This document shows positions 11,296-12,342 of a stretch of 64,000 bases of DNA, in pieces. The DNA is taken from the NCBI RefSeq assembly GCF_054482525.1, contig NZ_CM137006.1; one strand, 5' to 3'. Both the position numbers and the translations under genes were made by a program. Position 1 is the stretch's first letter, and every line of letters begins with the position of its first letter. Under the pieces are notes generated by a model, which was not told the origin of the DNA, did not search any database, and saw only the letters and a list, made by a program, of their open reading frames with translations.

Positions 11296-12342
11296 ATGCC
11301 AGTTTTGCAGTGGGGAATGTTATGTGTGCTCTCACTTCTCCTTTCTATTGGCTTCCTCGGATTACATCTCCCGGCGGCGCTATTACTTGGGCCGATGATC
11401 GCCGGGATCATCTTCAGTATGCGCGGGGTTACCCTGCAACTCCCCCGCTCCGCTTTTCTCGCCGCGCAGGCCATTCTTGGCTGCATGATTGCGCAAAACC
11501 TGACCGTTTCGATCCTGACCACGCTAGCGGTGAACTGGCCGATTGTGTTAGCTATTTTACTGGTGACGTTACTTTCCAGCGCCATCGTGGGTTGGTTATT
11601 GGTGCGCTATAGCTCACTGCCTGGAAATACCGGTGCCTGGGGTTCTTCTCCTGGCGGCGCGTCGGCAATGGTCGCTATGGCGCAAGATTACGGCGCAGAT
11701 ATTCGCCTGGTGGCGTTTATGCAATATCTGCGAGTGCTGTTCGTCGCGGGGGCGGCTGTTCTGGTCACCCGCATGATGCTGGGCGATAACGCTGAAGCGG
11801 TTAACCAGCAGATCGTCTGGTTCCCGCCAGTGAGCATTAATCTCCTGCTTACGATTTTGCTCGCAGTCGTTGCCGGTACAGTGGGATGCTTGCTACGTCT
11901 TCCTTCCGGCACGATGCTCATCCCGATGCTGGCGGGCGCAGTGCTCCAGTCTGGTCAGCTCATCACCATCGAACTACCGGAATGGCTGCTTGCGATGGCG
12001 TATATGGCAATTGGTTGGCGGATTGGTCTTGGTTTCGATAAACAAATATTACTGCGGGCATTGCGCCCGCTGCCACAAATCCTGCTGTCGATTTTTGCTC
12101 TGCTGGCTATTTGTGCGGGTATGGCGTGGGGACTGACCCGATTTATGCACATTGATTTTATGACTGCCTACCTCGCCACCAGCCCCGGCGGGCTTGATAC
12201 CGTGGCAGTCATCGCCGCAGGGAGCAATGCCGATATGGCGCTCATTATGGCGATGCAAACCCTGCGCCTGTTCAGTATTTTGCTGACGGGACCTGCCATT
12301 GCGCGGTTTATTTCAACCTATGCGCCGAAACGTACGGCCTAG
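11296..12342 (+). CDS. abrB: AbrB-family (AidB regulator) inner-membrane protein
   Basis: 348 aa from [15 protein letters not shown], polytopic membrane protein; the ORF track begins further upstream in the same frame. Confidence 0.8.

Follow-up and report, generated by a model that had tools for sequence, protein, structure and literature searches.

When the coding sequences of convergent prokaryotic genes overlap, the overlap is most often 4 bp long; this is the modal length and the commonest class, and 58 convergent overlaps have been counted in E. coli, with the four tetramers CTAG, CTAA, TTAG and TTAA named (Lillo & Krakauer 2007, PMC2174442). The convergent genes nei and abrB, analysed here in a stretch of DNA of 64,000 nucleotides (the window), overlap in this tail-to-tail manner, sharing the central TA, the modal length and one of the permitted tetramers. 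Nothing essential sets the pair apart from this class; it uses CTAG, the rarest tetramer in this genome. Since the pair falls into the commonest class of convergent overlaps, its existence is unsurprising.

The pair can also be compared with described systems in which converging transcripts meet. In the ExcludonFinder map of E. coli MG1655 (PMC12288877), nei-abrB is one of 165 convergent excludons, with a presence in at least 50% of the 58 RNA-seq samples; like the other members of that list it is convergent and has transcripts reported to overlap. The mean spacer given there for the listed excludons is 95 nt, as against -4 for nei/abrB, and the RNase III mutant (rnc) and p19 capture data discussed below do not support reciprocal expression of this pair. 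Bidirectional intrinsic terminators answer the same problem, that of ending two converging transcription units in little space, and collision-based bidirectional termination of convergent genes needs an intergenic stem-loop to position the collisions (bioRxiv 10.1101/2022.10.23.513370). At nei/abrB such a stem-loop is absent, whereas it is present after nei in relatives that lack abrB and between the other five convergent pairs of the window. A parallel for the fate of the transcripts is Rho termination of untranslated read-through and antisense RNA (Adams et al. 2021, PMC7815308), with which nei/abrB shares bicyclomycin-sensitive read-through about 310 nt past the stop codon, antisense to a gene and in C-rich, G-poor RNA. 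It differs from the cases described there in that the evidence concerns the nei strand only and is near threshold.

Taken as a whole, the most probable explanation (about 0.75) is that the junction is an ordinary, conserved, spacer-less overlap, with read-through handled by Rho and with little or no regulatory consequence.

The CTAG tetranucleotide and the two reading frames

The abrB gene ends with the TAG at positions 12340-12342 of the plus strand and nei with the TAG read from 12341 to 12339 on the minus strand. Including their stop codons, the two coding sequences share 4 nt, leaving no intergenic base. The coordinates and strands given in a preliminary description, which had placed both stop codons on a CTAG and claimed that no intergenic space remains, are exact on both counts. 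The features of the locus are collected in Table 1.

Table 1. Position, strand and basis of assignment of the features around the nei/abrB junction (window coordinates).
Feature	Position	Strand	Basis
CTAG common to both stop codons	12339..12342	no single strand	substitution scan and ORF ends
abrB coding sequence, 348 aa, polytopic membrane protein of the AbrB-duplication family	11296..12342	+	profile matches, RefSeq
nei coding sequence, 263 aa, endonuclease VIII	12339..13130	-	profile matches
Hairpin GCGGGCGCAATGCCCGC followed by AGTAATATTT, inside abrB, about 270 nt past the nei stop	12054..12070	-	consensus scan
Stretch rich in C and poor in G, 281-360 nt past the nei stop, including 12029	11979..12058	-	C/G 2.45
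C-rich windows at 12403-12502 and 12563-12662, in antisense nei	12403..12662	+	C/G 1.9-2.1
ybgI-pxpB-pxpC-pxpA, co-directional, upstream of nei	13166..16238	-	RefSeq annotation
ybgO-abrB spacer with promoter-like site (11124-11151) and terminator-like hairpin (11155-11177)	11124..11177	+	consensus matches only

AbrB matches the model for the membrane protein AbrB duplication (TIGR03082) with an E-value of 3.7e-86 and PF05145 with an E-value of 1.3e-97, the latter over residues 29-339 of 348. Nei matches the endonuclease VIII equivalog NF007763 over its full length (residues 1-263 of 263, E-value 2e-150) and contains a Fapy_DNA_glyco domain, an H2TH domain and a zinc finger (PF06827) that runs to residue 263; the protein ends directly past the last zinc-finger cysteine, in the motif CPGCQH. 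The Pfam and TIGRFAM domain match does not take in the last nine residues of AbrB, a tail whose sequence differs among species; orthologues align up to residues 345-348 and stop at the same place or a few codons away. The RefSeq annotations of strain PCN033 (abrB 787174-788220, nei 786386-787177) and of K-12 MG1655 (nei 745935-746726, abrB 746723-747769) contain the identical 4-nt overlap, and the pair is annotated in the same way in O157:H7 and two further strains. The abrB and nei stop codons are the true C-termini of genuine genes. The preliminary description had named a revision of the gene ends as the result that would separate the two genes; both stops are fixed by sequence and by homology, and the overlap stands. 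It is also already known, from the reference annotations and from a published map of overlapping transcripts.

Convergent overlaps of 1, 2 or 3 nt are impossible with the stop codons TAA, TAG and TGA. The smallest possible convergent overlap is 4 nt long, and its tetramer must be of the form Y-T-A-R; nei/abrB belongs to this class, having stop codons on opposite strands with a common central TA. It follows from such an overlap that the last sense codon of each gene must end in a pyrimidine. Enumeration of all single substitutions of the CTAG shows how tightly the two genes are tied: any substitution of T12340 or A12341 removes both stop codons, and C12339T and G12342A are the only changes with which both survive. 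Past the CTAG, the next in-frame stop codons are two codons on for abrB and seven codons on for nei. The tetranucleotide CTAG is rare in the window, with 10 occurrences where base composition predicts 249 and a Markov model 38.8.

On the nei strand the junction reads CTAGG (window 12339-12343, minus strand). Very-short-patch repair tends to convert CTWGG to CCWGG, and a single transition of the CTAGG to CCAGG type at the junction would remove both stop codons at once.

The window is a segment of an E. coli chromosome. A query of 2,401 nt around the junction is 100.0% identical (rounded) to PCN033, and a comparison over 8.4 kb contains three SNPs. One SNP between the window and PCN033 falls in codon 71 of abrB (Val against Gly). 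The main difference between the two lies in an Rhs core-protein region (20214-25309); there is also an indel or rearrangement near 39696, in the chiP region, and otherwise scattered SNPs. The nei gene is reportedly the terminal gene of an operon, with ybgI-pxpB-pxpC-pxpA upstream. On the other side, the terminator-like hairpin of the ybgO-abrB spacer is situated directly 3' of the ybgO stop, and this spacer is likely the boundary of the abrB transcription unit, judging from its consensus matches. RefSeq names the product of abrB (11296-12342) "AbrB family transcriptional regulator". Its matches are to models of a duplicated polytopic membrane protein (TIGR03082), its sequence has a strongly hydrophobic character, and the name as a regulator looks historical. 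The gene abrB was first named as a locus affecting aidB expression; a literature search on the link between abrB and aidB gave nothing usable.

Conservation of the junction in E. coli and its relatives

The 2.4-kb nei-abrB region is present, at a coverage of at least 80%, in 5,421 of 5,426 complete E. coli genomes. For the junction itself, queries of 33 nt centred on the CTAG were used with a 28-nt seed, so that every match must include the exact CTAG. At least 4,838 of the 5,426 genomes contain the exact junction by this measure (at least 28 nt matched exactly across the CTAG), distributed over four flanking haplotypes with 240, 3,034, 431 and 1,133 genomes; the genomes beyond these 4,838 lie outside the four haplotype queries and do not count as evidence of loss. 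In E. coli OkiPb01694 (NZ_AP042564.1) the match breaks at about 12242, some 100 nt short of the end of abrB, and two places in the record match, which suggests an insertion or rearrangement within abrB.

The comparison between species covered 80 species-level genomes with a close relative of Nei. The nei stop is at the identical position in all 80 loci, and abrB lies convergently downstream of nei in 20 of them. Thirteen of these 20, from Escherichia and Citrobacter lineages, have the 4-nt overlap. Read on the nei strand, their tetramers are CTAG (four loci), CTAA, TTAG and TTAA (three loci each); CTAG belongs to four Escherichia lineages and CTAA to E. albertii and two Citrobacter-like genomes. 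All four permitted tetramers are therefore in use, and overlapped relatives differ from each other by Y and R exchanges at the outer bases only. In a rough tree of nei alone, calculated without support values, the overlapped state appears in three separate subclades. A neighbour-joining tree that included the upstream flanks was discarded as unreliable, these flanks not being homologous.

The seven remaining loci have gaps of 6, 25, 54, 75 or about 925-946 nt. The 6-nt gap is that of Salmonella enterica subsp. arizonae and the 54-nt gap that of subsp. diarizonae, and the gaps of about 925-946 nt contain an additional open reading frame. The AbrB of S. arizonae is equal to that of E. coli in length and in the position of its tail, so the Escherichia state amounts to 10 nt less spacer with neither protein changed. 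The last sense codons also differ between the two kinds of loci. In overlapped loci both end in a pyrimidine, and Nei ends with His or Arg (codons ending in C or T), while in gapped loci the last Nei codon is often AAA (Lys). Comparison of the sequences thus points to the difference that the Y-T-A-R constraint would predict.

Several loci deviate individually. The 54-nt spacer between nei and abrB in S. diarizonae (L009, 3793-3846) holds the REP-like sequence GCCTGGTGGCGCTACGCTTATCGGGCCTACA, which suggests that this gap may have arisen through insertion of a REP element. In Citrobacter sp. R56 (L017, 3846-4706) and two further loci (L029 and L031), an open reading frame of 286 aa, co-directional with nei, lies between nei and abrB, and abrB converges on this inserted reading frame with a gap of 9 nt. 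In Citrobacter youngae ATCC 29220 (L011, 3790-4643) abrB is absent and a 282-aa AraC-like reading frame converges on nei, its stop codon 2 nt from that of nei; the same type of 3' flank is found in five other Citrobacter and Pluralibacter genomes (L014, L015, L020, L026 and L049). The abrB of Citrobacter amalonaticus AUH_CA_2023_1 (L021, 3798-4836) is found as two overlapping tblastn segments, covering residues 1-119 and 103-346, suggesting a frameshift or an assembly error, and the TTAA junction is kept.

Termination beyond the junction

A scan of 10800-14000 with the terminator consensus finds no intrinsic terminator at the junction and no terminator-like site on the plus strand downstream of the abrB stop. 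In all, the scan returns four terminator-like sites, as against 4.4 expected from shuffled sequences. Folding of 100 nt reveals no terminator-like hairpin within 40 nt on either side of the junction, and no Rfam family matches 10800-13600 at E-values of up to 1. Between the nei and abrB stop codons there is no bidirectional intrinsic terminator made of a GC-rich stem-loop with an A-tract on one side and a T-tract on the other. Of the six convergent pairs in the window, all but nei/abrB are separated by spacers of 41-161 nt, each with a strong GC-rich hairpin, most of them flanked by A and T runs, and two of these five spacers also look REP-like. Within the window, a terminator-less pair such as nei/abrB is unusual. 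In relatives that lack abrB at this place (many Klebsiella, Enterobacter, Lelliottia and others), an A-tract, a GC-rich hairpin and a T-tract follow a few bases past the nei stop, as in AAAACGGTAACCCGAAGGTTACCGTTTTT or, for Klebsiella and Enterobacter, AAAACGGTAACCC...GGTTACCGTTTT. The AraC-like neighbour with its 2-nt gap implies that nei lacks a private terminator in more than one gene context.

Past its stop codon, nei-strand RNA is untranslated. A Rho termination region on the nei strand, antisense to abrB, has been reported at MG1655 position 747036 (plus strand of that genome), from DirectRNA-seq with and without bicyclomycin, evaluated in windows of 800 nt (PMC7815308, supplementary file 2). 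This position corresponds to 12029 of the window, 310 nt past the nei stop. The reads upstream and downstream of it number 68 and 30 without treatment and 75 and 95 with bicyclomycin, giving a Rho score of 2.87 with a p-value of 7.6e-5 (PMC7815308); the call is marginal, being close to the cut-off of 1e-4, based on tens of reads, resolved to 800 nt and made for one strand only. The coordinate falls in the strongest 80-nt stretch of C over G downstream of the nei stop, with a C/G ratio above the 99th percentile of the window, so that the nei strand here has the C-rich, G-poor, untranslated RNA characteristic of Rho-dependent terminators. Conservation of this stretch was not accepted as evidence for a rut site, as most abrB orthologues have it and it is inseparable from the coding constraint on AbrB. 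Read-through from nei is plausibly terminated by Rho inside abrB.

For abrB transcripts, Rho might load at the two C-rich windows of antisense nei, candidates proposed from base composition. No Rho region antisense to nei and no curated Term-seq 3' end in nei or abrB are listed by Adams et al. (2021, PMC7815308), and the supplements of the SMRT-Cappable-seq work have no entry for nei, abrB or pxpA.

Alternatively, the intrinsic terminator of each gene might lie within its partner's coding sequence, the hairpin at 12070-12054 being the candidate for nei. Intrinsic terminators have been predicted for about 20% of the genes in convergent overlaps of E. coli (PMC2174442), and the hairpin, which has a partly T-rich tail, is located some 25 nt upstream of the published termination coordinate and is intact in five E. 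coli-type sequences examined. Its tail is a poor U-tract, however, and the number of terminator-like sites does not exceed the shuffled expectation. Bicyclomycin raises read-through at the 747036 site, and the plus strand offers no corresponding candidate for abrB. Among the orthologues examined, those of Citrobacter and Salmonella have a weaker hairpin or none, as do Escherichia sp. MOD1-EC7003, E. whittamii and E. albertii, and all of these except Salmonella have the overlap. Because its conservation does not extend across the overlapped lineages, we discarded the hairpin as a dedicated element, and embedded terminators are an unlikely solution for this pair. The hairpin may act as a block to 3' exonucleases or as a weak terminator, and would be at most a species-specific stabiliser of the 3' end.

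Antisense transcription and the meaning of the overlap

Another reading is that the pair works as a convergent excludon, in which, owing to the forced overlap, nei and abrB would exclude each other's expression by collision of polymerases, cleavage of the RNA duplex by RNase III or both. Overlap of the transcripts is unavoidable by geometry, and PMC12288877 reports that such pairs, as a class, are less often co-expressed in single cells and more syntenic. The listing of nei-abrB in that work is nearly automatic for two expressed genes with overlapping coding sequences. Conservation of the overlap in Escherichia and several Citrobacter lineages speaks for this reading; against it, the adjacency is evolutionarily labile, with spacers or an additional gene in Salmonella and several Citrobacter, another convergent neighbour in close Citrobacter relatives and no abrB at this place in most Enterobacteriaceae. 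The conservation of Y-T-A-R, for its part, is explained by purifying selection on protein length alone.

Expression data bear more directly on this reading. In total RNA-seq, the sense and antisense levels of nei are 5.4 and 4.1 RPM in the wild type, 3.8 and 1.6 in rnc-14 and 4.1 and 1.4 in rnc-38; those of abrB are 8.2 and 2.3, 4.2 and 1.5, and 2.4 and 2.7, respectively (PMC7373196, Tables S1b/c). For comparison, ybgI has 121 RPM and gltA 2,759 RPM (PMC7373196). Sense RNA of neither gene rises in the two rnc mutants, in the one growth condition used and at very low counts. Double-stranded RNA captured with p19 amounts to 6.5-21 RPM for nei and 5-12 RPM for abrB, as against 136-293 RPM for pxpC and pxpA (PMC7373196), with no hot spot at nei/abrB, likewise at low counts and in a single condition. 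The antisense levels of the two genes (1.4-4.1 RPM) are in the range seen at unrelated genes in the same table and speak neither for nor against read-through. Antisense to sense ratios of about 0.4-0.5 (Huang et al.) were considered as proof of read-through and rejected, the absolute antisense levels being those of background. The strand column of Table S1c in PMC7373196 conflicts with Table S1b and with the genome annotation for ybgL, abrB, ybgO, ybgP and ybgQ, and the sense and antisense labels of these genes in Table S1c call for caution.

These rnc and p19 data argue against strong interference, and conditional effects are possible. The promoters of both genes are weak, so collisions should be rare, and we found no report of reciprocal expression specific to nei and abrB in the literature. 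A functional excludon is accordingly unlikely for this pair; if it were true, oxidative base-excision repair would be coupled to the role of AbrB.

In the RNA-seq data the signal falls from 40.6 RPM for pxpA to 5.4 RPM for nei across the 35-nt spacer between them (13131-13165). This drop, despite reported co-transcription, hints at attenuation or differential stability upstream of nei.

In a stronger version of the excludon reading, selection would keep the terminator-less junction as a switch in cis, such that induction of ybgI-pxp-nei or of abrB silences the partner by read-through. This would link the capacity for oxidative DNA repair to the AbrB membrane protein, and we regard it as very improbable. 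That the overlap is an artefact of annotation, with one of the genes ending earlier or later, is the least credible reading of all: nothing was found in its support apart from the variable AbrB tail outside the domain match, and it is contradicted by stops fixed by sequence, the alignment of Nei to its equivalog through residue 263, a nei stop in the same position in 80 of 80 species, an AbrB tail of maintained length (345-348 aligned residues) and identical RefSeq annotation in K-12, PCN033, O157 and other strains.

The interpretation in the preliminary description agrees in part with these results. Its statement that the junction leaves no room for terminators is borne out by the empty scan and fold and by the hairpins between the other five pairs, and its claim that each transcript is bound to enter the opposing gene is backed by the geometry, the Rho region at 747036 and the excludon listing. 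The mutual antisense interference it predicted from this is unsupported, given the weak expression, the lack of a rise in rnc mutants and the low level of p19-captured RNA.

In the explanation we prefer, that of an ordinary overlap, 4 nt is the tightest packing in which two convergent frames can keep their stop codons without overlap of sense codons. Both proteins retain their usual C-termini, at an Escherichia junction 10 nt shorter than that of S. arizonae. With the spacer gone, so is the intrinsic terminator found after nei in relatives without abrB. Transcripts of the nei operon would continue into the antisense strand of abrB, remain untranslated there and be terminated, for the most part by Rho, some 300 nt further on; for abrB transcripts an end of the same kind inside antisense nei is probable. 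With both genes weakly transcribed, polymerase collisions and RNA duplexes would be rare, and the overlap is most likely of little or no consequence for regulation. It would persist because the only neutral changes open to it are C/T and G/A switches at the outer bases.

The nei/abrB overlap is in itself of little importance: it is annotated, its class was counted years ago and the pair is in a published map. If the pair proved to be a working excludon, it would add a further case to a regulatory layout already known. What the junction offers is a local illustration of how the loss of a spacer removes an intrinsic terminator, of how Rho termination inside the opposing gene plausibly takes over, and of the constraint that a common TA core places on the stop codon and the last sense codon of each gene.
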